Source: Massalongia carnosa (Eukaryota). Taken from it: a stretch of DNA of 64,000 bases. The position numbers and the translations under genes were made by a program. The DNA lies in NCBI GenBank assembly GCA_965645245.1, contig OZ287069.1, positions 124,001 to 188,000 of the forward strand, read 5' to 3'. The notes beneath the pieces were generated by a model. The model was not told the origin of the DNA, made no database searches, and saw only the letters and a program-made list of their open reading frames with translations. Shown here piece by piece: positions 11,150 to 61,500 of the stretch; positions within the stretch are counted from its first letter, which is position 1, and the number at the start of each line of letters is the position of its first letter.

Positions 11150-14100
11150 TCCTTGATCAAAATCGCGATCAAGGACGTCTTAAGAAAGATATCATTTGTG
11201 AAATTGGTAGCGCTGAAATGAAGACAGTAAGGGTCTCTAGTTGTGCTGTTCTCGATACTGAAAAGAAGATCGAGGGCAAGCATCTAGTATTTAAACTAGC
11301 ATAGCTGGAATTAAAACTCGTTTACTTGTTGATAATGGAAGTGAGGCTGAGCTCATTGATGAATCCTTCGCGCGTGTAAATAAACTGAACACCTCCAAAT
11401 TAGAAACGGGGGTTAAACTGACCCTTGGAAACGGAGAGGTTGCCCAACTTCTCACGAGGACCGCCCTAGTCGACGTCAAAATCGGGGATCATCAAGAACA
11501 AGTCCTTTGCTATGTAGCAAAACTGGACGTGTACGCGGTTATTCTAGGAGATGGATGGCTACAAACTCACAACCCCAGCATTGACTGGAAAGAGCGAATT
11601 ATGAAGTTTAACTCTGCCGATTGCTTGGAAATGGGATGCCTTGCGCGTGGAATAACCTGCACCGAATTTGCTGTTGGAAGTAGGGCAAAGAATAGGATCG
11701 GAACAAAAGACGATATCGAAGTCCTTCCGGTCAATGCGAAACATTTCTTTCGGATGGTTAGGAAGAAATATCACGAGGGATACTTATGGACTCCCCGAGA
11801 ACATAAGACCTTCTGTGCCACGACCACTGGGGCCGTCACCTCAAAGGATTACGACAAGTTTATGAAAGGCAAACCCGAGTACTCCCGCGAAGAATTGTTG
11901 AAGAAAATTCCCTCAGAGTATCATAGCATGATAGAAGTCTTTATGAAGCATAAAGCAGACGAACTACCGGAACATCGTAAGGAGGATCACGAGATCAACC
12001 TCATGGACGGAAAAGAACCCCCTTATGTCAGGAACTATAAGCCTATGTCAGAACAGGAGTTGGAAGCTGTCAAGAAGTATATTGACGAACATATGGGAAA
12101 GGGATTCATTCGTCCCAGTTCGTCGACAGCAGCTGCTCCAGTCCTTCTAGTTCGAAAACCAGGTGGTGGACTGAGATTTTGTGTGGACTATCGAGCCTTG
12201 AATGCCATCACAGTAAAGAATCGATATCCTATTCCCCTAATTAACGAGACGCTCGGAAAACTCTCGCAGGCAAAACGCTTCACGAAACTAGACGTTATTA
12301 CGGCATTCAATCGTCTTCGAGTAAAAGAAGGACATGAATGGCTTACCGCTTTTAACACAAGATATGGCCAGTTCGAATATCTGGTCATGCCTTTCGGTTT
12401 ATGCAATGCTCCAGGGACTTTTCAGAGTTATATAAATAATTCGGTTCGGGAATATTTAGACGTCTTTTGTACTACTTATCTGGATGACGTCTTGATCTAC
12501 AGTGATAATGAGGAAGAACATTCAGATCACGTCTTGAAGGTTCTTAAACGCTTGGGGGAACGAGGACTCCAAGTTGACATTGACAAATGTGAATTCTCGG
12601 TGACTAAAGTAAAGTACCTCGGACTTATAGTCACCACTGAAGGAATACAAATGGATTCCGAGAAGATTGAAGCGATTTTGAAATGGGAAACTCCGGAGTC
12701 CGTGAAGGACGTGCAAGCTTTTTTAGGCTTTGCAAACTTCTATCGACGATTCATATCAAAGTTCTCTCAGCGTACAAGGTCTCTGACGGAATTAACAAAA
12801 GGAGAACAAATAACGACCAAGTCGGGCAAGAAGAGAACCCGATATAACGTGTTCATCTGGACCGAAGATTGTAAAAAAGCTTTCGAAGATTTGAAAGAGG
12901 CCTTCACTACTGCACCAGTGTTAGCGCACTATGATCCTTCTCTAGAGACATGGATAGAAACAGACTCTTCGGATTTCGTCACTGCCGGAGTCTTATCTCA
13001 GATGCATGACGGAGTGCTCAAACCGGTAGCATATTTCTCCAAGAAGATGACACCGGCCGAATGTAATTACATGATATATGATAAGGAACTCCTTGCTATC
13101 ATAAAGAGCTTCGAGGTCTGGCGGCCCGAGGCAGCAAGTGCTGCGCCTGACCAGCCAATCAAAGTTTATACTGATCATAAAAACCTGGAACACTTTATGA
13201 CGACAAAGCAACTGAACCGCAGACAGGCCCGATGGGCTGAATTCCTTTCGGAGTTCAATTTCAAAATCATGTATCGACCGGGCAGACAAGGCGAAAAGCC
13301 GGACACACTTACTCGACGTTCTCAAGATCTTCCAAAAGGGTTTGACGACTCTCGACAACAACATCAATTCCAGACATTGCTACAGGAGCATCAACTAGAC
13401 GATGACGTAAAGAAGGCTTTATCAGTGATCTTCTGTGCAAACACAAGAACAAATGACACTAACGAAGAAGCTGAGGAACCTCAGGCCATCGAGGACGATG
13501 AAGAGGCTCAGGGTCAGATTTTAAATGAAAATCCGGTGAAAGAACTAGGCGACGATTCGGAAGAAGATCCATCAGCGAAACCTCTAGAAGAACTAATTGA
13601 AGAAGCTTATGAAAAAGATGAAGTAGTTCAAGACATAATCGCTGCCAAAACACGAGAACTTCGCAAGCTTCCATCGCATCTTATAAAGAAAGGGATCAAA
13701 TTAGCCATGGGAGATCTCAAAGTGAAAGATGAAAGACTATCTGTCAAAGAAAGGCTGTATGTCCCAGATCATGAACCCCTTCAATTATGCCTGTTGCAGA
13801 AACATCACGAACCTCCTCTGCAAGGACACCCGGGATATAAAAGCATGTATCAGTCACTGATGGAAAACTACTTCTGGTTCGACATGAAGGATCACTGCAA
13901 AAGATACGCAGTGAACTGCTCCATTTGTCGAAGGTCAAAATCATACAATGTCAAGAAACAGGGCTTACTGAATCCTCTACCCATACCGAACAGAAAATGG
14001 ACAGACGTCTCTTTAGATTTTGTGGAGTTTTTGCCGGAATGTCGGCGAAGGAATAGAGTGTATCAACACATATTAGTGATAGTAGACCGTCTAACAAAAA

Positions 14101-31114: not shown

Positions 31115-32279
31115 CTAGATGGAGGTGCCCGGCGGCGCTCCGGATCGATGCCCTGGTTGACCTGTACGCCCAATGGAATGCCCAATTGAGTAGGGGTAGG
31201 AGTTTGTAGGATTCGTCTCGGCGACGACAGCACGTGGGACTGCCAGAGGGATGCCTTTTTGAAAATTGAGGTTCAAATTGAATAGTGAGGCCTGGGACGT
31301 CTGAAAGTATAGCTGAAACGCGTTTGATGACCATCTTCCGAGTCTCTGAATACTCTCATCCAGCATCCCGTGGTCGGCGGCGTGTTGTGCTGCTCCTTTT
31401 CTGAAGCTGTGTCCCGAGTATGCCGAGTCGTTGATGCCGGCGGCTATCAGTCTCTTTTTCAGGGATGCTATGACGGAGGCTCTGGTGAATGCGGTGCCGA
31501 GACGAAAAAGCGGGGATGTAGATGGCTGAGGATCATTTCTGAAAAAGACGCCGTAGTGCTGTCACGGGGCAAGTGCTCTCATTAGTCGCTGCCAGCACTA
31601 TCTGAACTCCTGAGTGATTTGTGTCTGTTTTGCTTCTTTTGAGACGTAATGTCGCGTATTGATCGTTCTCGGCGAATGAGATGTCACCTCGTGTAGGTTT
31701 CAATCTCTGAAAAGATGTCTTCTTACGATCGGCGACAGTGTAGGTGATTTCCCCGAGTCTGAGGAACCCTGCCCATGCAACTTTGAATGTCGCGTCGATG
31801 TTGAGGTCTTCGGCCGAATGAGCGGGAATACTGGTGATTTTTGTCAGTAATTCTTTTGAAATGGGTAGGCGTCTTCTTTTTGTCTGAGAAAAGATCCTTT
31901 TTCCCCCTTTCAGCATCAATTGAAGTCTCGGCCCCTCGAATGGGGTGAGGCCGTATCCTCGGTCTACATGGTATGATCTGAGGCCGGCGAGGTAGCTCGC
32001 TGCCGTCTCTGGTTTTATCTTTCCCTGCTTGGGTGTGCCGCCCCCGTATAGTCGACCGGCTAGCCATTCCTCGAGGGACTCGGTTGTTGCAGGCCACGAC
32101 GTGCGTCCCGTCGTTGCGCAGAATGCCTCGTATGAGTCGATCGCCGTCCCGTACCCTTTTCTCGTGTCCGCCGAGTGTCCGTGCCAGACGAGGCGTTTTA
32201 CCAGGGCTGACCCTGGTGTGGAGGATACGTAGGTGGAGGGAGGTTCATCGAATTGTATGGGTTCTGCCAATGAGGGCAA
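31115..32279 (-). pseudogene. Ngaro-1 tyrosine recombinase, frameshift near 31540
   Basis: GFLRLGE, RSKTD, then in the next frame YSGHSFRKGAA...LGRWSSNAFQLY. Confidence 0.9.
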
Positions 32280-33901
32280 AAGTTAGCCAATCTTTCATCA
32301 TCAAAACGTGACAGGGCATCTGCTAGTCCATTGGAAGTGCCACTGATCCATTGACAACGTAGTACGATGTCCCACTTTGCAGCTATGGACAGTATTTCTC
32401 GTAGAGGCGCGTTGGCCGGTCCCTTGAGGGTTAGATTCGTGAATCCTGTGTATGCTGTGTTGCTGTCGGTAAAGACAAGGATCTGTCGATGTCGCCATGT
32501 CGGCGCCCATTTCTGAAGGATTAGAAGGATAGCCTCGACTTCTCGGACGTTTATGCTCGGTGATTCTTCCTGATTGAGGACTAGGACTCGGGCCCTACAT
32601 GCGTTTTTTTGATTCACGAGCTCGTTGTCTTGTTGAAAATAGCCTCCGAGACCCGTGAGGCATGCATCCGTATGCACCTTGATCGTGTCTCGTGTTGACG
32701 TCTCGAAGAAGACAATACCGTTGAAGTCCACTAAAAGTTTGTTCCACCAGATGAGATCCTGTCTGACCCATGTGGAAATTCTTCTTTTGACCCGACGATG
32801 ACTGCCCGAGGGAAATGAGGCTATAAAATTCCAGAATAATCGTAAGAAGACTCGGCCCAATTTGACTGCCTGTGCGCAGAAGCTTAGGAAGCCCGCTATT
32901 GATTGCATGTCGCCGAGGCTGATTGTCGTCTCGTTTAGTGCCTTTGTAGTGATGATTCTCGCTTTTTCCAGCTTGTCCGCTGGCAGACGAATAAGACTGT
33001 TGATGGTGTCGACCTCGAGTCCGAAGACTGTCGCTGTCGTTCCCTCGGCGTCTTTTGAGTCGTTTCTCGGGATGCCGAGAATGTCGGTGAGAATGTTGTA
33101 GGCTTTTGTTTCTTGGTGCAATCGTTCTGACGATGTCTCGGATGGGAAAATTGCAACGAAGTCGTCTAGATAGTGATGTAATCTCCATTGTAGAAAGGAT
33201 TCCAAAATCCAATGAAAGCCTTCCGCAAAAAGATTGAAGATGAACGGGGCCGTCGACAGTCCGAACGAAAGGCATGTCTCGGTGTAGAATTCGTCATTCC
33301 ATCCGAAACCCAGAAGCCATTGATGATGAGGTGCGACGGGAACGTTTCGAAAGGCGTCTTTGACGTCTCTTTTCACTATGACAGCACCTTTGCCCTCTGA
33401 CAGAATCAATTGAATAATGTCGTCGAGTCTAGCGTATTGTAATTTGGATGCCTCTTCTGGAATGTTGTCGTTGACTGATGTTTGATTGGGATGAGACAGA
33501 TGATGAATGCGTCGCCATCCTCCGTCATGTTTCGGGACCAAGCCGAGGAGGGAGGCCACAAATGGCTGACTCGGGGCGGCTATTCGTCTGACTCGGCCCT
33601 TCCTGAGGTCCTCTTGAAGCTTATTCTCGATCGTTTCCGGGTCCTCATTCGCTGATGTCAGATTTTTTTCGATCCGAAGGATGTCTGTGGGGCCTTCGTA
33701 TCCGATTTGTACTCCGAAACGAAGGATCATGGGCAGATGGACTCGGAGGGGGCCCGGATACTCTTGAAGTAGGGTTGCCCATGCGGACGGTACGAGGGGA
33801 GATGGGCTGTCTTTCAAACGCTGACGAGATGCGTCTACGAGTTGAAACGAAGGGATTGTATTTGGTCTGATTGGTGCAGGTAAGCAGGGATGGGACGTCA
33901 T
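32198..33901 (-). CDS. Ngaro-1 reverse transcriptase-RNase H
   Basis: GLVPK, WRRIHHLS, KRDVKDAFR, LSFGL, HYLDDF; HTDAC, INVREV, FTDS, NGLADALSR. Confidence 0.93.
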   Translation of the reverse strand: MTSHPCLPAPIRPNTIPSFQLVDASRQRLKDSPSPLVPSAWATLLQEYPGPLRVHLPMILRFGVQIGYEGPTDILRIEKNLTSANEDPETIENKLQEDLRKGRVRRIAAPSQPFVASLLGLVPKHDGGWRRIHHLSHPNQTSVNDNIPEEASKLQYARLDDIIQLILSEGKGAVIVKRDVKDAFRNVPVAPHHQWLLGFGWNDEFYTETCLSFGLSTAPFIFNLFAEGFHWILESFLQWRLHHYLDDFVAIFPSETSSERLHQETKAYNILTDILGIPRNDSKDAEGTTATVFGLEVDTINSLIRLPADKLEKARIITTKALNETTISLGDMQSIAGFLSFCAQAVKLGRVFLRLFWNFIASFPSGSHRRVKRRISTWVRQDLIWWNKLLVDFNGIVFFETSTRDTIKVHTDACLTGLGGYFQQDNELVNQKNACRARVLVLNQEESPSINVREVEAILLILQKWAPTWRHRQILVFTDSNTAYTGFTNLTLKGPANAPLREILSIAAKWDIVLRCQWISGTSNGLADALSRFDDERLANFCPHWQNPYNSMNLPPPTYPPHQGQPW

Positions 33902-33946
33902 GAATTCAGCTATTGAAGCTATTCTACTGCCTCCTACACCAACCCC

Positions 33947-34960
33947 CTATTTCTTCGTTGGGCATGTCTTCTGGCCATGCCCAGCCGCGCCGCACGATTT
34001 GCATTTGTGCTGTCGGTAGCACGACGGCCAGGTGCAGGTGCCGCTGTTGTACTTGTCGCAGATTTCCCCCGCTGCCTTCTCGGCCCTCTCGGCCCTGTCT
34101 CCTCTCGGGGTCGGTCGTCGGGACGGCGGGGATCGTGAGCGGCGACGGCGTAGGACTGTGAGGGGGGTGCAGAATCGAGCTTGGAATTCGTCGGGCATTT
34201 TCCATTGGGATGCGTCGGATGGCTGAGACGCGATGACGTGGGTGTGGGTTTCGATGGCGAGGGGGAGGACTGCTTCCTGCCACTCGTACACCTTGGCCAG
34301 CGTGAGGATTTTTCCGTGGAATGCCGACATGGTGGCGTGAAGCTGTTGACTCGATTTCCCGAAAAGACTGACCATGATCGAGGTGTAGTTGATGAAGCTC
34401 TCGGTCCAGACGTCATGAACTGTCTTTCCGAAATCTTTGTAGGTCCCGGATGCCTTTCTCAACCTCAAGGCGCCGTCTTCGATGCCGATGCGGTCTTGAT
34501 CCTTGTATGACTCGTATTGCATGCCGCGCATGTGTCGGAGGCGGGAGAGGTTGATGGCTTTGAATTTATTTGAAAAGATCTTGATGATCTCGTCCTGTGG
34601 TAGGCCCGCGAAACGGGGTGCTATGCTTCTTACTTCGAGAGGGATCTCACCTAGGTCCTCGTCGTCATCGCCGACGACACGACTCGGCTTGCCAGCAGGA
34701 ATGACGGCCGCTATTCGGGCGTCAGAGTCTCGGCGCATGCAGTCGATTTCTAGCTGCATTTTTTCCACCTCCTTCTCGGCGACCAATGCCTTGGACTCGG
34801 CAATTCTAGCCTCAGCCTCGGCCGCCTTCGCTTCCGCCTCGGCTTTCTTCTTTTGTAGGGCGAAGATTTGATTGGATTGGGCCTACGTCAATCCGACAAT
34901 CTCCTGGGGGTCGGGGACTATGTCGTCCATCAAGGTGCTTTGGGAACGGGTGTTCGTCAT
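33947..34960 (-). pseudogene. gag: Ngaro-1 Gag-like ORF1; ATG at 34960, one internal TAG at 34885-34883
   Basis: C-terminal CDKYNSGTCTWPSCYRQHKCKSCGAAGHGQKTC zinc fingers. Confidence 0.8.
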
Positions 34961-40172: not shown

Positions 40173-40879
40173 ATTTGACCTTGATATCTACCAGTATGAT
40201 GCGGTCAGTGCTTTCATAAATAGCCCGATTGATGAGGAAATCTTTTGTGAGTGTCCAGAAGGTTTTGACAAGCCCGGATACTGTTGGAAGCTTAGAAAAG
40301 CTCTGTACGGATTAAAACATGCACCGATTCTATGGTATAAGCTCCTAACCATGGCCCTAGAGGAACTCGGACTAGCGCAGTCCCAGGGGTCAACTGTCTA
40401 TTTGCCAATGAGTGGATTATCCTATTCTTCTATGTCGATGACATTGTGGTCATACGCAGGAAGCATAAGTCGGACAAATTTTAAGAATTTGAGAAAGCTC
40501 TCCTGAAACGATTCGAAATGCATGCTCTAGGGGAATTGAAATGGTTTCTCGGTATAAGGATTACCCGAGACCGAGCAAATAAGAAGATATGGTTATGTCA
40601 GGACTCATACATTACCAAAATGGCTGCGAAATTTAATCAGCACGGGGAAACCGCGAAAACACCACTGACAGTGGTGTCTCCAGCCTATGAAAAGGAGCAA
40701 AAAGCAGACAGTCAACGTATATATGCGTACCAGCAACGGGTAGGTTCATTGAACTTCCCAGCGGTAATATCCCGGCCCGATATAGCATTTGCAACTGCAA
40801 AATTAGCTTAATTCTTACAAAACCCGTGCCCGGATAATCTGTCTGCGGCCGATCGGGTTATTGCTTTTCTAAATGGGAC
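40173..40879 (+). mobile_element. Degenerate Copia RT fragment
   Basis: QYDAVSAFIN, KALYGLK, FYVDDIV, WFLGIRI, SRPDIAF; cut by Ngaro-2. Confidence 0.88.
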
Positions 40880-41606
40880 CTAGTTCGTGTCAATCTCGTT
40901 ATATTGCTACTAAGTATGTTTGGGCTATTGCTCACAGCCCCCGGCCTCGAGAGGGGGACTCGATAAGGGCCTTGCTGTCTACTAATGTAAGACCCTCTCG
41001 CAGGCCTTGGGCTGTGAACAGACTCCCTCTATCTAAGCGACAGAAGAACTGGAGTGGGTGGGTGGGAAAGAAAACGTTGCAAACAGTGCTATCAAAATGC
41101 TATGCTTTTTGATTGTCTTGAGATGTGAGATGATGAGGGATACCGTCTGGGACCTCCTCTTTATATATCTTCTTCCTATTCTCCTTGTCCTACTCTACCA
41201 TCCCAGTATGCCCCATCAACGCGGCCCATAGCAAGGCATACACAAATCCGAAACCTAACTGTCGTCCGAAGGATCGATGCGGTGCTAAGATCTCTATGCC
41301 GTGCTGAGACATCCTTATGGTGCTGAGACATCTATGCCGTCCGAGAGATCCATGCGGTGCCGAAATCAAAGCGGGAGCTGTCTCGATTAACGACGCACTA
41401 GCTCTCAGCATAGCCGAACTAGCTAGTTCGTGTCAATCTCGTTATATTGCTACTAAGTATGTTTGGGCTATTGCTCACAGCCCCCGGCCTCGAGAGGGGG
41501 ACTCGATAAGGGCCTTGCTGTCTACTAATGTAAGACCCTCTCGCAGGCCTTGGGCTGTGAACAGACTCCCAATCCCCAACATGGAACGACCCGCTTGCGG
41601 TGTTGT

Positions 41607-42643
41607 TCAGGACCTAGTGACTGGATTGTGAGGTTCCGTGGGTAATGTTTGAAGGCGTTTTGAGGCGTTAAGAAGGTAAGTGGGGTGGGTTTGTATGTAA
41701 AGCTTGTATGCGTCTGACTTCCATCTTCCTAGCATCTGAATCTCGTCTTCGGTGAGTCCTGCCCGTCGCGCTGTTGTTGCCGCACCTCTTCTGAACGAGT
41801 GGCCAGAGAAATTTCCTATATAGCCCAAGTTCCTTAAGGTGGATTTCATCGCTGTTGTAATGTAGTCTCGAGTGAAGGACTGACCGTTTTTAAAGAGTGG
41901 TGCGGCCGGAGAACTTGGGAATCGCCTATATAAATTTGTAAGAGAAGCTAGTGCACAAGCAACATCGTTGGTAGCCGCAATTGTCAGTGTTATGCCTCGG
42001 CGAAAGGGATCGGTTTTGGAGACTGGTAGAGAGAGCTGTAGGTGATCTGCTTCGAACCTAATAGATTTTCTGGTGAGGTGCCATTGATCAAAGCTTGGGT
42101 CTAGTACATCTTGCGTTGTGTAAGTAAATTCTCCGGCTCGTAAGAAGCCTGCAAACGCTAAGCAGTACGCCGCATGTAAATTTGCGCCTTTCTCTTTCGT
42201 TTGATCAAGACGACTTAGCAATTTGATTAAGATCTCTCTAGTAATTGGTAACCTTTCACGTTTCTCGGCTTCACCGTTCTTTCGCTTTATGCCAGTAAGG
42301 ATGCGATCTAACACCGGGTGATGAAATACGTCGAGATTACCGAGGCCCATATCTATCTGGCATGATCTTATGCCCGTCAAGTAGCTCTTAATAGTTTTTG
42401 GTTGCAGGCGTCGTTCACCCAACGCTGCGATCCACGAAGACAGCGTCCGGATGTTGGCTGGAAATGGTGGCGCGTTGAGGTTTACCCTACAGTAAAGAAC
42501 GTATCCCTTTCTTGCCGTTGTGTATAAAGATCTTGTCTTAGTGGCCAGGCCCCACCAGAGGTATCGTGCTGCGATTTCGTCTAGAGGTACCTCACTGTAC
42601 CAAGATGGGGGTGGATCGCGTCCTATATTGCTGAGGGTAGAGC
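41607..42643 (-). CDS. Ngaro-2 tyrosine recombinase; frame open from about 42662 with no AUG start
   Basis: GFLRAGE, SKTDPFR, GHSFRRGAA, LGRWKSDAYKLY catalytic residues all present. Confidence 0.93.
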
Positions 42644-44239
42644 CTGAAACTGAGGGATTTTGTCAGCCAGTTTCTTCAAAAGTCCTCTAGACAAGAGATC
42701 AGCAATATAATTTTCTTTGGATGATATCCATCGCGCTTCTATCTGGATATCATGTAATGCAGCTAGCATTGTAATTGCCCGCAGGGCATGCATTGCTTGG
42801 CCTCGTATAGAGGTTTTATTCACTCCTTTCGTGACAGCGTAGCTATCACAATAGAGGATTAAATGACTACCCTTGCATATAGGTAGCCACTTTTTCATAG
42901 CTTGAAGAATTGCTGTCATTTCTTTGACGTTGATATGCTTTGCCCTAAGGCGCGTAGTAAAGCGTGTGCTAAAAGCCTGCCGGGCTGCTTGTATATTATG
43001 CAAATTTTGATCCTCGCTGAGGATAAAGCCGCCCATACCATATGAGCCGGACGCATCTGTCCATATTCTCATAGTATGTCTAGTACGGTTGAGCAGATGT
43101 ATGCCATTCCATTTAGGTAGGAAATGATGCCACCATAGAAGATCAGCCCTCATGTCCTTGTTAAGATGGATTAGTTTAGAGGTTACGCTTGCCGTAGCAT
43201 TGAAAAGACGGCGTAGAAAGGCTCTTCCTGGTTTTACCACTCTGGCTGCAAAGCATAAGAATCCTAGAAGAGAGTCGAGTTCCTTCCTGGGTATGGCTTT
43301 TTTATTCAAAGCTGCCGATACTAGGGTCTTTGCTTTTAGTAACTTTTCGGAAGGCAAGCGTGCTTCCATGAGCGCGGTATCGATTTCAATGCCGAGGAAA
43401 TCGCAAGTCGTTCCAGTTCTGTTCTTTTCGAGCTTGATTTTCATGCCAAGATCTTTACAAATGTTGTGGAAAACTTGATCAAACTTTTCAGCATCTGGTC
43501 CGGTGCTGACTATTATTAAAAAATCATCCAAGTAATGAATAGCGTCTTTCCAACCACAGTTGTACAATATCCAGTTGATACCCTTCGCGAACAGATCAAA
43601 AAGGAACGGCGACGTTCTCAGCCCAAAGGGTAAGTATTTATCCATCCAAAAGGAATCCTGCCACTTGAAACCTAGTAACCACCAATCGCTTTTTGCTACT
43701 GGTATGTGGCGAAAAGCGTCCGCAAAGTCTCTTTTAATAAGAATACACCCTGGCCCGCGTTGCTCAATCAACCTAATGGCTTCGTCGAAGCTGGTATATT
43801 CCAGGGAGCCCCAGTCTTCCGGTATGTGGTCGTTGACTGAGCTACTCTCCGGATACGATAGATGATGGATTCGCCGCCAACCACCGTTAGCCTTTGGTAC
43901 AAGGCCTAATGGGGAACATATAAAGCAAGAAGGAATGTTGTTGACTTTCTCCAACCGATTACTAGCTATTTGTTCTTCGAGGTCATTGGTAAGAACTTCC
44001 GGTGCCTCATTTGCAGAGGCAAGATTATCGCTAATAATGAGTTGATGTGGTCCTGTATAACCAACTTTGGCACCGTAGGTGATGATATCGATAATTGTTT
44101 GTGTGTAAGTGCGATCCGGGTGATTGGCCAAATGTTTCTCCCAGCCTTCTTTCTTCAATGGGCCCGGTGGGATCTTTGTTAGATTGTCCGTCAAGGTGTA
44201 TGGAAAGGACTCCGCGATGGATAAGAATGGGGCGGTTAG
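42623..44239 (-). CDS. Ngaro-2 RT-RNase H, in frame with gag, no usable AUG
   Basis: PLGLVPK, KRDFADAFR, LPFGL, HYLDDF; WTDASG, INVKEM, YCDS, NYIADLLSR. Confidence 0.93.
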   Translation of the reverse strand, partial: LTAPFLSIAESFPYTLTDNLTKIPPGPLKKEGWEKHLANHPDRTYTQTIIDIITYGAKVGYTGPHQLIISDNLASANEAPEVLTNDLEEQIASNRLEKVNNIPSCFICSPLGLVPKANGGWRRIHHLSYPESSSVNDHIPEDWGSLEYTSFDEAIRLIEQRGPGCILIKRDFADAFRHIPVAKSDWWLLGFKWQDSFWMDKYLPFGLRTSPFLFDLFAKGINWILYNCGWKDAIHYLDDFLIIVSTGPDAEKFDQVFHNICKDLGMKIKLEKNRTGTTCDFLGIEIDTALMEARLPSEKLLKAKTLVSAALNKKAIPRKELDSLLGFLCFAARVVKPGRAFLRRLFNATASVTSKLIHLNKDMRADLLWWHHFLPKWNGIHLLNRTRHTMRIWTDASGSYGMGGFILSEDQNLHNIQAARQAFSTRFTTRLRAKHINVKEMTAILQAMKKWLPICKGSHLILYCDSYAVTKGVNKTSIRGQAMHALRAITMLAALHDIQIEARWISSKENYIADLLSRGLLKKLADKIPQFQALPSAI

Positions 44240-45394
44240 TCATTGCCTTGATGGGAGAGGCATCGAATTTGGGTTAGAGGGTTGATTTTTTCCATTTGTA
44301 CAGTCCATCGCCCGATGTTGCTTTCCACATTTCTCACACACATGTTGGAATCTACAATATACGGGACAGTCTTTGCCATAGTTGTATTTCTTACAGATAA
44401 TCTTTTCGCCTGAGGTTTTGAAAGCCGTAGAATTATCGTCCGGTTTTGCAAAGTAAGCGGACGGTTTCCGCACAAGATGCCTTTCCAAGGAATGGTCCAT
44501 TTCTTTCCATCCATCCGGGTTGTCAATCCCGCGAAAGGCTCGAGATTTGTGGAAATTCAAATGAAAGATGCGAACCGAGTCCCAGGTGTAGAAGGCGTAT
44601 AATGATAGAAGATGGTCCTGATAAGCCATGAAGGCTCTCATCAGGTTTATCTGGAGACCGGGGTGTGCAAAGTGTAGTAGTATCATCCAATATACCCCGA
44701 GACATCGTATCAAATGAACTATCCCTTTGATATCTTTTAAGGAGCCATCTTCTTCTCTCGTGGCGATTTCCAGACCTTCTCCGAGTTTGACGTATCTAGA
44801 GTTGGTTTGAACTCCGTCGATGTCGGTACATAGCTTGGTAATGTTGATTGGGTCAAACGTATTCTCGGAGATTTGCTTTATCCATATGGGCTTGATAGTG
44901 GGATATTCGTTCATAAGAGAAACAAAACGAGGATCCATACCTTCTGTATACAATGAGTTTGGTCGATGCGGTGGAAATGATGTCGGAAATAATAGGGAAG
45001 GCTGTTGAGCTGAGGCTACTGGCCCAGGGACCACGTCTCGGGCACGTGCTTGTTGGGTTTCGATATCCCGCCTAAGACTTACTCTTTCTCTTTCCTCGGC
45101 TTCCCTGCGGGACATTTCGCGTTGTGCTCTAAGTTCAATAATGTCATCAGGGGTGCGAGAACGGGTTTCCGGTATAACAGGCCCTTGTGAGGAGGAATTA
45201 AACGCTGAAGATGGAAGAGGAGAAGGTTGAGGATGGCTTTGAAGGGTTGCCGTGCTGTCTTGTGAGTCGGGTACTTCGACGTCTGGGTTGGAGTTGGCTA
45301 GATTTGCCCTAGCTCTAGTTCTAGTACGGGCTAGAGTGCTGCCTTGTGTGCGGGAGGTAGGCTTGGTGATTCTGTTGGAGATGCGGGTGGCCAT
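44240..45394 (-). CDS. gag: Ngaro-2 Gag-like ORF1
   Basis: ATG at 45394; YTWDSVRIFHLNFH; CKKYNYGKDCPVYCRFQHVCEKCGKQHRAMDC. Confidence 0.85.
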   Translation of the reverse strand: MATRISNRITKPTSRTQGSTLARTRTRARANLANSNPDVEVPDSQDSTATLQSHPQPSPLPSSAFNSSSQGPVIPETRSRTPDDIIELRAQREMSRREAEERERVSLRRDIETQQARARDVVPGPVASAQQPSLLFPTSFPPHRPNSLYTEGMDPRFVSLMNEYPTIKPIWIKQISENTFDPINITKLCTDIDGVQTNSRYVKLGEGLEIATREEDGSLKDIKGIVHLIRCLGVYWMILLHFAHPGLQINLMRAFMAYQDHLLSLYAFYTWDSVRIFHLNFHKSRAFRGIDNPDGWKEMDHSLERHLVRKPSAYFAKPDDNSTAFKTSGEKIICKKYNYGKDCPVYCRFQHVCEKCGKQHRAMDCTNGKNQPSNPNSMPLPSRQ

Positions 45395-45818
45395 TTTTGG
45401 AGGAGAGGGATTTGAATAGAGTAAATTTAAGTGTAGTGGTTGTATAAATTTGAATTGGGTGAAAAGAAAACGTTGCAAACAGTGCTATCAAAATGCTATG
45501 CTTTTTGATTGTCTTGAGATGTGAGATGATGAGGGATACCGTCTGGGACCTCCTCTTTATATATCTTCTTCCTATTCTCCTTGTCCTACTCTACCATCCC
45601 AGTATGCCCCATCAACGCGGCCCATAGCAAGGCATACACAAATCCGAAACCTAACTGTCGTCCGAAGGATCGATGCGGTGCTAAGATCTCTATGCCGTGC
45701 TGAGACATCCTTATGGTGCTGAGACATCTATGCCGTCCGAGAGATCCATGCGGTGCCGAAATCAAAGCGGGAGCTGTCTCGATTAACGACGCACTAGCTC
45801 TCAGCATAGCCGAACTAG

Positions 45819-47640
45819 ATAGTAGCTTTGCTCGATAGCCTGATGGCCCATCGGGTGTCTTTTCTTAGGCGTTCCGTGTCTGAGGCGTTGTTGACTATTA
45901 CCTGTAGGTCTCCGCTAGGGAGGACCCTTGCTGCTATTGCTACGGCTGCTGCCTTGGCTGTGCCATTGGAAATAGGGGGGGCGGGAGCGTTTTGATTGGT
46001 CGGAATTCTCGTGTTGTTATGATCCTTTAACGCGTTAGATATTGCCGCGTTGATTCTGTCTTTGAGCGCTGAGGAGGCCAGTTTGGCCAGATCCTTTGCT
46101 ATGGCTTCGTTGTTCAGTTTGACGACGATTTCACGAGCTTTCTCTTCTAGTATAGGAGCGGGGATGGACGTCCCCGAAAGCGTAGAGATCGTTGGGGCCG
46201 AGGCAGCAAAGGCTGCCCGTTCTGCCCAGGTTATCGTCCTCTTGTAGCCAGTATGTTAAATAAACAGTTGACGGCATAATGTTGAAATTACTACGGAGGT
46301 GACTGCTTATAGCAGTCATGGCAGCCTGCAGGGCAGAGCTAGAACCAATGGGGCTAAGCGAGTATTCCAACACTCCCCTTCGAGCGTGGCTCCCCTTTCG
46401 CCTCCAAAATTGAAACTATCCAGCTTTTATCACTCCCCTTGCGAAGTGATTCATCCAGCTGTGTCCGATTCGCTCCCCTTGCGGAACGAATCTAGCTCCC
46501 TCTGACTCCATTTTCCCTGAGCACGTAGTTCCTTCTTATGTCTTTTGTTGTCCTGCTTTGTAACCTCATTAAACCCATAACCATCTCTCGAAACGTAGCT
46601 TTTGTGAGTGTATGGGTGGATGGGAAGAGTACTATGGACGTGTTTTGTTGATGGCCTGAGCAGGGCTTTTCTCGATGTCTCTGTTAGATATTTTCCCGCA
46701 GACCATTGACGTTGGTGGCCTGATCGCAGGGCTTTTATCTCCCCTTGCTGATCTGACCAGTATTGCAAGATGTGAAGTCTTCGAGGCACCGCCCGTTGTA
46801 GATGTCCTCCTCAGCACGTTTCGTACGTACACCACTTTCGATGACGTTTCCGCTTCGTTTCCGCTTCGTTTCTCATCCCTTTCGATGTCGTTTCCGCTTC
46901 GTTTTCGCGCTTTCCACGTCTGAACTTTCACCTCACCATCTTCTTGATACGACATGATAGTACGTAGTCTATGCATGAAGGATGCCGTCGGAGTGGCGCA
47001 AAGCACAAACCCGGGACTCATAACCTGTTAAATAAACAGTTGACGGCATAATGTTTATTTTACTACGGAGGTGACTGCTTATAGCAGTCATGGCAGCCTG
47101 CAGGGCAGAGCTAGAACTAATGGGGCTAAGCGAGTATTCCAACACAGTAGTGGCCGCGGAGGAGGTAGTGGGTGTTGTGCGGGCGGTGTCTTGCTTGCGC
47201 TCGACATAGGTGACTTTAGTGAGCGTTTGCTCTGTAGTGTTCTTTATTTGGTTGATGGTAGCTTGGAGCTGATCCATTGTTGGCTGGTTGCGCATCTTCT
47301 CCAGTAGGCTGAGCATACTGGAGAGTAACGGGGTGTAAGACTGAACCTTCATAGGTCTTTGCTTCTGATATGCCTCGCAGTTAGTTAAGTTATTAAGCAC
47401 ATTGGTGAGGAAGTGACGATGCTCGTCTAGTGAATCGGGGGGGGCGTCGTTGGGCACGACAAAAGAGCTCCCCATGGTTGCCACAATGCAGCCACAACAG
47501 AAGGGACGATATAACTTTCGGCCAAGATAGCTACAGAGTCGGGGAGCAATTCTACGTGATCACAATGACTATTGAGGGCTTGTATGGGTAACGAATGCAA
47601 TTTCTAGTGCTAGCTAAAAAAGTGCGAAAGTTTTTTTGAC
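45819..47640 (-). mobile_element. 5' part of a LINE (Tad1-like ORF1), interrupted by a TRIM and cut by Ngaro-2
   Basis: ORF from 47484 rejoins across the TRIM: ...SSAATTGYKRTITWAERAA...REIVVKL...AARVLPSGDL...RWAIRL. Confidence 0.65.
46254..47144 (-). mobile_element. TRIM-like miniature non-autonomous LTR element (891 bp)
   Basis: 119-bp LTRs at 46254-46372 and 47026-47144 (TG...CA); TSD CAGTA; PBS GGTTATGAGTCCC; PPT GAAGGGGAG; no pol domains. Confidence 0.92.
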
Positions 47641-51541: not shown

Positions 51542-51963
51542 CCTGATCGCAGGGCTTTATCTCCCCTTGCTGATCTGACCAGTAATGCAAGATGTGAAGT
51601 CTTCGAGGCACCGCCCGTTGTAGATGTCCTCCTCAGCACGTTTTGTACGTACAGCACTTTTGATGACGTTTCCGCTTCGTTTCCGCTTCGTTTCTCATCC
51701 CTTTCGATGTCGTTTCTGCTTCGTTTTCGCGCTGTCCACATCTGAACTTTCACCTCATCATCTTCTTGATACGACATGAAAGTACGTAGTCTATGCATGA
51801 AGGATGCCGTCGGAGTGGCGCAAAGCACAAACCCGGGACTCATAACCTGTTAAATGAACAGTTGACGGCATAATGTTGAAATTACTACGGAGGTGACTGC
51901 TTATAGCAGTCATGGCAGCCTGCAGGGCTGAGCTAGAACTAATGGGGCTAAGCGAGTATTCCA
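51542..51963 (-). mobile_element. Second, truncated copy of the TRIM
   Basis: Matches 46719-47141, including the PBS and an LTR at 51848-51963. Confidence 0.92.
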
Positions 51964-58523: not shown

Positions 58524-61500
58524 TATCGGTCTTGGCAACCTCCGCGCCTTTGACTGAAACAAGTAAGGAGGCTAATCTTGAGCGGGTTCCTTGTATTAGA
58601 TATCCGGTCCGTTTGAGGAAGGATCAAGACGAGATACAGGCTTTGATAGATTCGGGCAGCGAGGTCAACACAATGCACCCCGCTTATGCCGCGAAACTAG
58701 GCCTTCGTGTTAGGGAAACAGATGTTGGGGCGCAAAAGATTGATGGATCTCACCTGGATACCTTCGTTATGGTTATCGCAGGGTTCGCGGTCAAGGACAA
58801 GCTAGGGAAGGTTCGAGTCTTCCAGGAAACCTTCTTGTTGGCTAATATTAGCCTGGAGGTGGTCCTGGGGATGCCTTTTCTTACACTCAGCAGTGTGGAT
58901 ATACGATTCGCAGAGCGAGAGCTCGCCTGAGAGCTCGCCTGGAGAACCTACACAGCTGCCGAGGCTTTACCAACAACCAGACGTGTGGAGATCATCGATA
59001 AGGAAGAATTCGCGGCGGCGGTCCTTGGAGGAGACGACGAGGCATATGTGGTGCATGTAATGGCCGTAAGCAAGCTATCGTCCATGCCGATCCACTCCTC
59101 TCGTCAGGCCCAAGTAGCCTCGCTAGTGAGCGAGGAGGCCAAGATCCCCGTTGAATATTCCGACTTCTCTGACTTCTTCTCCCCTGACTCTGCAGTAGAG
59201 CTACCGGAGCACACCGGCATTAACGACCATCCTATCGACCTAGTAGATGGTAAGCAGCCACCTTATGGCCCAATCTACAGCCTAGGTCCTGTGGAACTAG
59301 AGACACTGAAAACCTATATCGAAACCAACCTAGCCAGCGGTTTTATTAGGCCTTCCCAGTCTCCGGCTGGTGCTCCGATACTGTTCATCCGCAAGAAGGA
59401 CGGTAGTCTCCGCCTGTGTGTGGATTATCGAGGACTCAACACCCTGACGATCAAGAATCGGTACCCGTTACCCTTGATCGGAGAGTCGCTTGATCGACTA
59501 GGCCGTGCCAAGCGATTTACCCATCTGGATCTCACGAATGCGTATCATCGGATGCGAATTCGAGAAGGTGACGAATGGAAGACGGCCTTCAGGACTCGAT
59601 ATGGCCATTTTGAGTATCAGGTTATGCCCTTCGGCCTTTCCAATGCCCCAGCTAGTTTTCAGGGCTATATCAAGAAAATTCTAGCAGAGAAACTCGACAT
59701 CTTCGTCATCGTATACTTGGATGACATCCTGATCTATACCGAGGACTCAGGCCAAGGCCACGTTGAGGCTGTTAAGTGGGTCTTGGAGAACCTCCGAAAA
59801 AACGGACTTTTTGCCAATCTAAAGAAGTGCCGTTTTCATCAGGATGAGGTTCGCTTCCTAGGCTACGTTGTCTCTGGCCGAGGAATTCGTATGGAAGAGG
59901 AAAGGATTGAAGCTGTCAAGAACTGGCCAGAACCAAAGTCAGTACGAGACGTCCAGGTGTTTATGGGATTCGCCAACTTCTACCGGCGGTTCATCCGGGG
60001 GTTCAGCAAGATTGCTGCTCCACTCACCTCGATGCTCAAAACAAACTTGGTAGCCAATACTGGGCCACCAAAGGCAAGGCGCGGAGAGGAAGAATGTTGT
60101 TTCCTAACTCCTGCCGCTAAGTTAGCCTTTGCCCAATTAAAGCAGGCGTTCACTGAAGTACCGATCCTCCGACATTTTGACCCTGAGCGCCACATCCGAC
60201 TTGAGACGGACGCCTCGGGTTACGCCATAGGTGGCGTTCTTAGCCAGTTGGACATCGAAACCGGCCAATGGCACCCAGTAGCGTATTTTTCTCGGAAAAT
60301 GATTCCTGCAGAAACTCGTTACGAAACTCACGATGGGGAACTACTGGCCATCGTTGAAGCCTTTAAGAATTGGAGACATTATCTCGAAGGTTGTAAGCAT
60401 GAAGTTCTCGTGCTTACGGACCACAACAACCTGCGGCGATTTATGGACACGAAGAGTTTAAGCTCCCGCCAGGTTCGCTGGGCGCAAGAACTCTCTCGTT
60501 ACACTTTCCGCATCGATTATCGTCAAGGCAAGGCTAATGGAGCTGCCGATGCTTTATCTCGCTATCCTCAGAGGAGCCAAGGCGAAGAGGAAGTGCTTCG
60601 AGCTGAGAATACTCGAATCCTTCACCGATTGCAGTCCTCGCTGACCAGCGCCAGCATCTCTGGTATCACTAGTACTCAGCATCTCACCCCTCCACACCAC
60701 GTCATCATCTGCGGAACGCACGTCTTCCCTCAACTACGTCAGTTTTGGGATACGCTCCGCCAAGACTTGACCTCTGAAGGTCCTTACAAAGTCAGCATTG
60801 GTGGCATGAGGTTGAGGTTGCAGGAGTTGCAGGAGGAAGATACCCAAGCTCAGATGATCAGAGCAGAGAAGCTTGGAAAAGATGGCTGGGAAGACACCGA
60901 TGGGATTTTGCATTATCAAAGCTTGCCTTATGTCCCTGAGATCCTCAGAACTGAGCTAATCAGTAGGCATCATGATGATCCATTAGCAGGACATTTCGGC
61001 ATCGAAAAGACGCGAGAACTCATTGCGAGAAAGTACTTCTGGGAGACTCTCCGCCGCGACGTCGAGAGCTATGTCAAGGGCTGCGACGTCTGCTTATCTT
61101 CTAAAGCGGTCAGACACAAGCCTTACGGAGACCTACAGTCACTGCCAGTGCCTACTCATCGCTGGAAAGACTTGTCTATGGATTTCGTGACAGGGTTGCC
61201 TGAATCTGCGGATTGGAAGCGCGACAGTTACGATTCGATCCTGGTTATCGTCGACCGGCTTACGAAGATGGTGCACTATGAGCCAGTGCTGACAACGATA
61301 ACAGCACCATGGCTAGCAGAGGTAATCATAGACGTGGTAGTTCGTCACCACGGCTTGCCAGACTCTATTGTCAGCGACCGCGGCTCAGTTTTCACTTCCA
61401 AGTTCTGGTCTTCCTTGTGCTACTTTTTAGGCATCAAGCGACGCCTCTCTACCGCGTTCCATCCACAGACCGATGGGCAGACCGAACGCCAGAACAGCAC

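Follow-up and report, generated by a model that had tools for sequence, protein, structure and literature searches.

Structure of the Ngaro-2 element

The DNA analysed here (the window) is a 64,000-nucleotide (nt) stretch of the genome of Massalongia carnosa, positions 124,001 to 188,000 of contig OZ287069.1 in GenBank assembly GCA_965645245.1. On its minus strand it contains a complete retrotransposon, Ngaro-2 (40880-45823), in which a gag-like open reading frame (ORF) and an ORF for reverse transcriptase (RT) and ribonuclease H (RNase H) lie in one frame, separated by a single TGA codon, with an ORF for a tyrosine recombinase (YR) downstream. An earlier note on this DNA had proposed that the TGA is suppressed to give a Gag-RT-RNase H fusion, and it is this junction that concerns us here.

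Within the RT ORF, Pfam matches to RVT_1 (residues 153-286, E 2.9e-14) and RT_RNaseH (residues 388-476, E 1.4e-7) were both past the cutoffs, and the YR ORF matched Phage_integrase at E 4.6e-4 with 20.4 bits, short of the cutoff of 27.1; by blastp the same ORF matched the YR part of protein P0001 at E 1.6e-74, together with 20 other proteins. The gag-like ORF was without any Pfam match and carries a CCHC knuckle with the sequence CEKCGKQHRAMDC (44338-44300, minus strand). Only RT, RNase H and integrase-family matches were returned by the Pfam scan of the three ORFs, with no protease, DDE integrase or methyltransferase among them. According to two published accounts, a methyltransferase domain separates DIRS from Ngaro elements (PMC3783388), and the repeat order A1 - ORFs - B1 A2 B2, which is that of Ngaro-2 (Table 1), is a defining Ngaro feature (PMC6681497). 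By its domain content and repeat order, the element is assigned as a Ngaro-type YR retrotransposon. The copy is young, with 99.2% and 100% identity between its terminal repeats, and apparently intact. A tblastn search with the three Ngaro-2 proteins found a second element in the window, Ngaro-1 (approximately 31115-34882, minus strand), whose RT is 39% identical to that of Ngaro-2.

Table 1. Features of Ngaro-2 and Ngaro-1, in coordinates of the window.
Feature	Position	Strand	Remarks
Ngaro-2 gag TGA, candidate readthrough site	44240..44242	-	context CAA TGA CTA ACC GCC CCA
Ngaro-2 gag-like ORF, 384 codons	44243..45394	-	ATG 45394; CCHC knuckle at 44338-44300, 19 codons before the stop
Ngaro-2 RT-RNase H ORF, 538 codons	42626..44239	-	frame of gag; terminal TAG 42625-42623
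Ngaro-2, first 25 codons past the stop, AUG-free	44165..44239	-	SIAESFPYTL from codon 7; alignment with L001, L003, L002, L008
Ngaro-2 YR ORF, 351 codons stop to stop	41607..42662	-	-1 frame relative to RT, 40-nt overlap
Ngaro-2 split direct repeat A1, 5' end	45456..45823	-	369-nt blastn match, 99.2% identical to 41059-41427
Ngaro-2 split direct repeat B1	41423..41570	-	148 nt, 100% identical to 40880-41027
Ngaro-2 split direct repeat A2	41059..41427	-	partner of A1
Ngaro-2 split direct repeat B2, 3' end	40880..41027	-	partner of B1
Ngaro-1 gag-like ORF	33947..34882	-	ends ...CKSCGAAGHGQKTCPTKK, then TAG (33949-33947)
Ngaro-1 RT-RNase H ORF, 582 codons	32198..33946	-	gag frame, directly after the stop: AAA TAG GGG GTT
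Ngaro-1 predicted 18-bp stem-loop	33869..33944	-	begins 3 nt past the TAG

The gag/RT junction and its near-identical copies

The single TGA between gag and RT in Ngaro-2 is followed by 538 open codons, whose translation begins LTAPFLSIAESFPYTL... The catalytic motif KRDFADAF occupies residues 169-176 of this post-stop frame (43735-43712), and an in-frame Met first occurs at residue 199 (43645); because this Met comes after the motif, an AUG-started product cannot contain KRDFADAF. These measurements bear out the earlier note, which had read the RT frame as going on directly after the gag TGA with CTA ACC GCC CCA, had placed the first Met about 200 codons on, past the first catalytic Asp, and had concluded that an intact RT cannot be made by AUG initiation. 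An ATG that overlaps the gag stop (44243-44241) opens a different frame, with a stop-to-stop ORF of 80 codons (44031-44273), and therefore cannot give RT.

Ngaro-2 is present nearly word for word in public sequencing runs under four coded organism labels, and six public runs carry half or more of its sampled words (runs X1-X7 being among the runs that contain it). Runs X2, X5, X6 and X7 were aligned to the element, the coverage of X6 stopping short of the junction. A contig from X2 (record 7; 44171-44935, word depth 247) and one from X5 (record 12; 44051-44321), two runs that carry the labels of two other organisms, each show 0 differences across the stop, which is therefore real and common to near-identical copies; the X2 and X5 copies are too similar to Ngaro-2 to show selection. 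Run X7, a freshwater metagenome, contains a relative about 5% diverged, whose listed indels within gag are +9 nt, +3 nt and the loss of 1 nt at 45394, where the gag ATG begins. The earlier note had reasoned that suppression would be undermined by a sense codon in other copies, or by use of the overlapping ATG together with an indel restoring the RT frame. Neither outcome was found: near-identical copies keep the TGA and distant relatives mostly keep a stop (see below), and among the indels listed for the four runs none lies between 41326 and 44408, where it could bring the overlapping ATG into the RT frame. The spread of Ngaro-2 over four organism labels could reflect close relatives, mislabelling or recent transfer between hosts.

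Recurrence of the junction stop in distant relatives

An RT alignment retrieved 79 metagenome loci at 36-55% identity to the Ngaro-2 RT; a scan of viral contigs found no relative. The layout was assessable in 69 of the 79 loci, the RT frame running off the contig in the other 10, and the loci were classed in two ways. When a CCHC knuckle was sought within 1.5 kb upstream of RT, one was present at 53 of the 69 loci, and 16 were without a knuckle by the pattern used. The knuckle lay in the RT frame at 43 of these 53 loci (one third expected) and in another frame at 10. Exactly one stop was found in 36 of the 43 same-frame loci, two or more in 6, and none in a single locus (L046). The other classing was based on ORFs, and took as positive a same-frame ORF that ends at the stop opening the RT frame and is either at least 100 codons long or knuckle-bearing up to the contig edge; 37 of the 69 loci show such an ORF. 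Removal of a duplicate (L004) and of two loci with the knuckle off-frame (L017 and L022), and addition of Ngaro-1 and Ngaro-2, gave the set of 36 elements to which the counts on junctions below refer, and which largely overlaps the knuckle-based loci without being identical to them.

A YR match lies downstream in 29 of the 34 metagenome elements of this set, the contigs of the other five ending too early, so that the relatives belong to the same type as Ngaro-2. The interval between the junction stop and the onset of RT homology (median 127 codons, range 25-212; 4,062 codons in all) contains 0 stops in the RT frame, whereas the two remaining frames contain 76 and 134. This absence is partly by construction, and the real test is therefore the frequency of the layout itself, namely 36 of the 53 knuckle-bearing relatives. 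On an IQ-TREE phylogeny of RT (37 rows) no deep, well-supported clade is without a junction stop, and the label formed by the stop codon and the +4 nucleotide changes at least nine times. Since the stop persists while its identity turns over, the site has been kept as a stop and does not descend from one inherited lesion; maintenance of the site with turnover of its codon is the opposite of the pattern of a one-off nonsense lesion.

Stop-codon context

The 36 junction stops comprise 27 TGA, 5 TAA and 4 TAG, and the terminal stops of the RT ORFs at the same loci (n=27) comprise 9 TGA, 11 TAA and 7 TAG. The +4 nucleotide is C at 30 of the 36 junctions versus 7 of the 27 RT-ORF ends (Fisher p 6e-6), and the combination TGA-C occurs at 25 of 36 versus 2 of 27 (Fisher p 5e-7); as the rows are phylogenetically related, these p-values overstate their independence. 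The codon after the stop is CTN at 20 of the 36 junctions (TGA CTC 9, TGA CTA 7, TAA CTA 2, TGA CTT 1 and TGA CTG 1), TGA CTN accounting for 18 of the 27 TGA junctions. Among the others are one TGA CGG, three TAG-G (of the four TAG) and one TAG CAA. For the statement of the earlier note that an upstream CAA favours readthrough in yeast, the check was indirect: an A is found at -1 in 16 and at -2 in 18 of the 36 junctions, and a 2004 paper by Tork et al. has a title on two adjacent adenines.

A UGA with CU, or CUA, after it was reported to be sufficient for efficient readthrough in HeLa cells and in Ustilago maydis, and replacement of the UGA by UAG or UAA to lower it (PMC4207609, Stiebler et al. 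2014), which backs, for a basidiomycete fungus, the description of UGA-CUA in the earlier note as an established readthrough context. In the scheme given by Firth et al. (PMC3159437), UAG-CAA-UYA is type I, UGA-CUA and UGA-CGG are type II, and UAG-G with a structure is type III. By this scheme the seven TGA CTA junctions and the one TGA CGG have type II contexts, the three TAG-G are as in type III, and the TAG CAA is the first half of type I.

Coding signals and RNA structure after the stop

In the Ngaro-2 clade a conserved peptide lies shortly after the stop, S(I/V)(A/S)E(S/G)FPY.L, which reads SIAESFPYTL in Ngaro-2, SISESFPYQL in L001 and HISEGFPYAL in L003, with its onset 6-8 codons past the stop in Ngaro-2 and L001. 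A divergent form, LEFPFTL, is found further from the stop in L002 and L008, and the Peltigera gene model P0038 contains TSIAETFPYLL. The peptide is upstream of the first in-frame Met in Ngaro-2, L001, L002 and L003. That Met lies past the catalytic Asp motif in Ngaro-2, L002, L032 and L034, 2 codons before it in L047 and L051, and 12 codons before it in L036; the RT ORF of L006 is without any Met, and in Ngaro-1 a Met lies at codon 16 after the stop. On the gag side, among the C-termini inspected (P0036-P0040; the gag cluster P0035 has 18 members), those of the homologues P0036 and P0037 end ...RRE, 18-21 residues past the knuckle, at the place equivalent to the ...SRQ of Ngaro-2.

The fold predictions used cannot model pseudoknots. 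For Ngaro-1, a 106-nt segment gave a minimum free energy of -33.4 kcal/mol (z -3.14), and of 200 shuffles 0 were equally stable. The other folded TAG-G elements, L002 and L006 (TAG GGA), gave z -0.59 and -0.74 downstream, with z +0.87 for L002 against shuffles. Downstream folds of L002, L032 and L012 were unremarkable and that of L074 was borderline (z -1.73). Downstream RNA structure was rejected as a general stimulator in the TGA group, for which the mean z was +1.16.

We also noted two peculiarities of existing gene models at this position. In the predicted gag-RT(-YR) fusion proteins P0001, P0007 and P0018 a W followed by L stands approximately 5-10 residues after the knuckle (RRRWLQDF, AKWLIEAF and AKWLIDAF), where Ngaro-2 has a stop followed by L, and this W may be a TGA called as Trp by the gene caller. 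In NCBI fungal gene models, including P0012, P0014, P0016 and others, gag, RT and YR are joined without the second knuckle and the junction, which is likely a systematic annotation artefact with an intron placed over the stop.

Proposed readthrough and the alternatives to it

The proposal of the earlier note that Gag-RT-RNase H is made by stop suppression is supported by the layout of the junction, by the conserved stop of the relatives, by the leaky contexts and by the peptide directly after the stop, all of which are observed. We consider programmed stop-codon readthrough at the Ngaro gag/RT junction to be the best reading, with a probability of about 0.75; passage of ribosomes through the stop, its rate and the residue inserted are what we infer from these features. 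Translation of the Ngaro-2 genomic RNA would begin at the gag AUG, and most ribosomes would halt at the UGA (44242-44240) and release Gag. Since termination at UGA is weak when CUA comes next, a near-cognate tRNA would be accepted at this codon by a minority of ribosomes, which would go on in frame to produce a Gag-RT-RNase H fusion. In general, readthrough of UGA inserts Trp, Arg or Cys. The outcome would be a low Pol:Gag ratio, as in gammaretroviruses.

Several observations weigh against readthrough. Not every relative has the layout, given the 10 of 53 knuckle loci that are off-frame, the 6 with extra stops and the stop-free L046. The predicted proteins P0008 and P0011, from the same sub-clade as L046, also run gag into RT without a stop, so that fused gag-RT variants exist; in the neighbours of L046 (L019, L044 and L072) the junction shows a stop with L or P after it, and further stops are present. 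A Met is present 12-60 codons past the stop in about half of the relatives, for which an AUG-started RT is therefore possible. In close pairs the post-stop spacer changes about equally at the three codon positions, suggesting that it is a poorly constrained linker. No significant structure was predicted after the Ngaro-2 stop (z +0.49 over 99 nt, z -1.38 over 59 nt), so any readthrough there would rest on the short context and may give low rates, and the TGA elements are, by the mean z given above, less structured downstream of the stop than elsewhere in the same elements. In Tca2, the one fungal retrotransposon with gag-UGA-pol in which this has been tested, the junction by itself failed to direct readthrough in Saccharomyces cerevisiae (PMC2194720).

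RT might instead be made without the stop being read at all, from an internal promoter in the gag-pol junction, by internal, non-AUG or reinitiating translation, or by a non-canonical bypass like that of Tca2, where gag-UGA-pol exists and yet the junction is insufficient by itself in yeast (PMC2194720). The early Met codons of roughly half of the 36 elements, such as codon 16 of Ngaro-1, fit such a start. Separate initiation of RT, however, needs neither a shared frame nor an open one, whereas 43 of 53 loci have knuckle and RT in one frame and a median of 127 codons is open up to the gag stop. In Ngaro-2, L002, L032 and L034 the catalytic Asp motif is reached before any Met, and the L006 ORF is Met-free; the conserved post-stop peptide precedes the first Met, and the bias towards TGA-C would be left unexplained. 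We therefore regard this explanation as unlikely.

It is very improbable that a short intron over the stop is spliced from a fraction of transcripts and so fuses gag to RT. The sequence TGACTAAC around the Ngaro-2 stop does resemble a fungal branch-point motif, and related gene models, for example P0014 and P0016, omit the junction together with the second knuckle, as would result from an intron call at this place. Against this, neither Ngaro-2 nor Ngaro-1 has a frame-keeping GT..YAG candidate of 40-200 nt over the stop, and any intron candidate is found in 8 of the 36 elements and one with a branch motif in 0 of 36, compared with 110/1,080 and 21/1,080 control positions, respectively; on these counts the intron was rejected. 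The CTAAC after the Ngaro-2 TGA is moreover absent from the other TGA CTA junctions, none of which continues with AC, and the sequence just past the stop is conserved as protein. Still harder to credit, and in our view extremely unlikely, is that the copy is dead and its stop an ordinary nonsense mutation, the similar-looking relatives having decayed as well. This would agree with the continuous gag-RT frame of L046, P0008 and P0011 and with the visible degeneration of many metagenome copies, six of them with extra stops, but the three Ngaro-2 ORFs are otherwise open and its repeats 99-100% identical, and the same stop is found in contigs of two other runs. The stop also recurs at the junction in 36 of 53 relatives, its codon identity changing over deep branches, and random lesions would not favour TGA-C.

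Comparison with known readthrough systems

Readthrough between gag and pol is a textbook feature of gammaretroviruses and is known in some long terminal repeat (LTR) retrotransposons. As in the gag-UAG-pol of the gammaretrovirus murine leukemia virus (MLV), where occasional suppression yields Pol, and solely as a Gag-Pol fusion (PMC3159437), gag and pol of Ngaro-2 are in one frame with one stop between them, and Ngaro-1 has a UAG-G followed by a stable predicted stem-loop, which may correspond to the gammaretroviral type III signal. Unlike gammaretroviruses, Ngaro-2 and most of its relatives have UGA-C and no detectable downstream structure, and Ngaro-2 is a YR retrotransposon without protease or integrase. 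Type II viruses (alphavirus, tobravirus) have UGA-CUA or UGA-CGG before the polymerase gene, as in Ngaro junctions, and many of them have an extended 3' stem-loop (Firth et al., PMC3159437), whereas the Ngaro TGA elements are less structured downstream. The short-motif genes of Stiebler et al. (2014) have the minimal UGA CU(A) signal in common with Ngaro-2, but there it adds a short peroxisomal targeting tail to metabolic enzymes (PMC4207609), whereas in Ngaro-2 a polymerase of more than 500 residues follows, in a mobile element. Tca2 (pCal), a Ty1/copia element of Candida albicans, is like Ngaro-2 in having an in-frame gag-UGA-pol layout, with pol translated from the gag-pol RNA; in contrast to Ngaro-2 it belongs to the LTR elements and has had a pseudoknot proposed for it (PMC2194720), and the UGA-CU motif, sufficient by experiment in another fungus, is present at Ngaro junctions. 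In function Ngaro-2 resembles the MLV, type II and short-motif signals, without belonging to those virus families.

In the literature searched, which included the available portions of PMC3783388, PMC9210276 and PMC6681497, readthrough was not described for any YR retrotransposon, whether DIRS, Ngaro or other; Goodwin and Poulter (2004, 2005) and Poulter and Butler (2015) lay outside this search and may note the layout. If true, readthrough would explain how Ngaro elements set their Gag:Pol ratio without a protease. It would also provide an annotation rule, by which no intron is called and no gene split at the junction stop, and would make available dozens of natural, diverged UGA-CUN junctions for the study of short-motif readthrough in fungi.

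The start of the recombinase

The first ATG of the Ngaro-2 YR ORF, at 42350, lies 104 codons in, and the overlap of this ORF with RT spans 42662-42623. Matches to the YR proteins of several relatives nevertheless begin within residues 2-19 of the stop-to-stop ORF, and 10 of the 11 differences of the X7 variant over 42351-42622 are synonymous in the YR frame. The start of YR therefore also depends on recoding, on splicing or on a codon other than AUG. Inspection of the RT/YR overlap by eye revealed no canonical slippery heptamer (X XXY YYZ), and the predicted fold of the overlap does not stand out (z +0.27). A wider scheme, which we put forward tentatively and consider rather doubtful, is that a whole lineage of YR retrotransposons makes its polymerase by readthrough, swapping freely between UGA-CUN, UAG-CAA and UAG-G with a structure while the site itself is kept, and that in Ngaro-2 a -1 shift in the 40-nt RT/YR overlap adds YR, so that one mRNA would yield graded amounts of Gag, Gag-RT-RNase H and Gag-RT-RNase H-YR.

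The second element and the surrounding DNA

The YR of Ngaro-1 is broken across two frames (32282-31533 and 31561-31115). A search around this element for split direct repeats of 40 nt or more found none, and it may therefore be old or truncated. Weak RT-like matches at 12279-13127 and 59528-60415, both on the plus strand and 22-23% identical to the Ngaro-2 RT, probably belong to other retroelement classes. Ngaro-2 lies in repeat-rich DNA: just outside it is a 423-nt repeat with copies at 46719-47141 and 51542-51963 (96.5% identical), and a 120-nt internal repeat is found at 46254-46373 and 47026-47145. An ORF on the plus strand (40518-40811) adjoins repeat B2 and reads MHALGELKWFLGIRITRD...SYITKM..., and may be a fragment of a copia-type polymerase.

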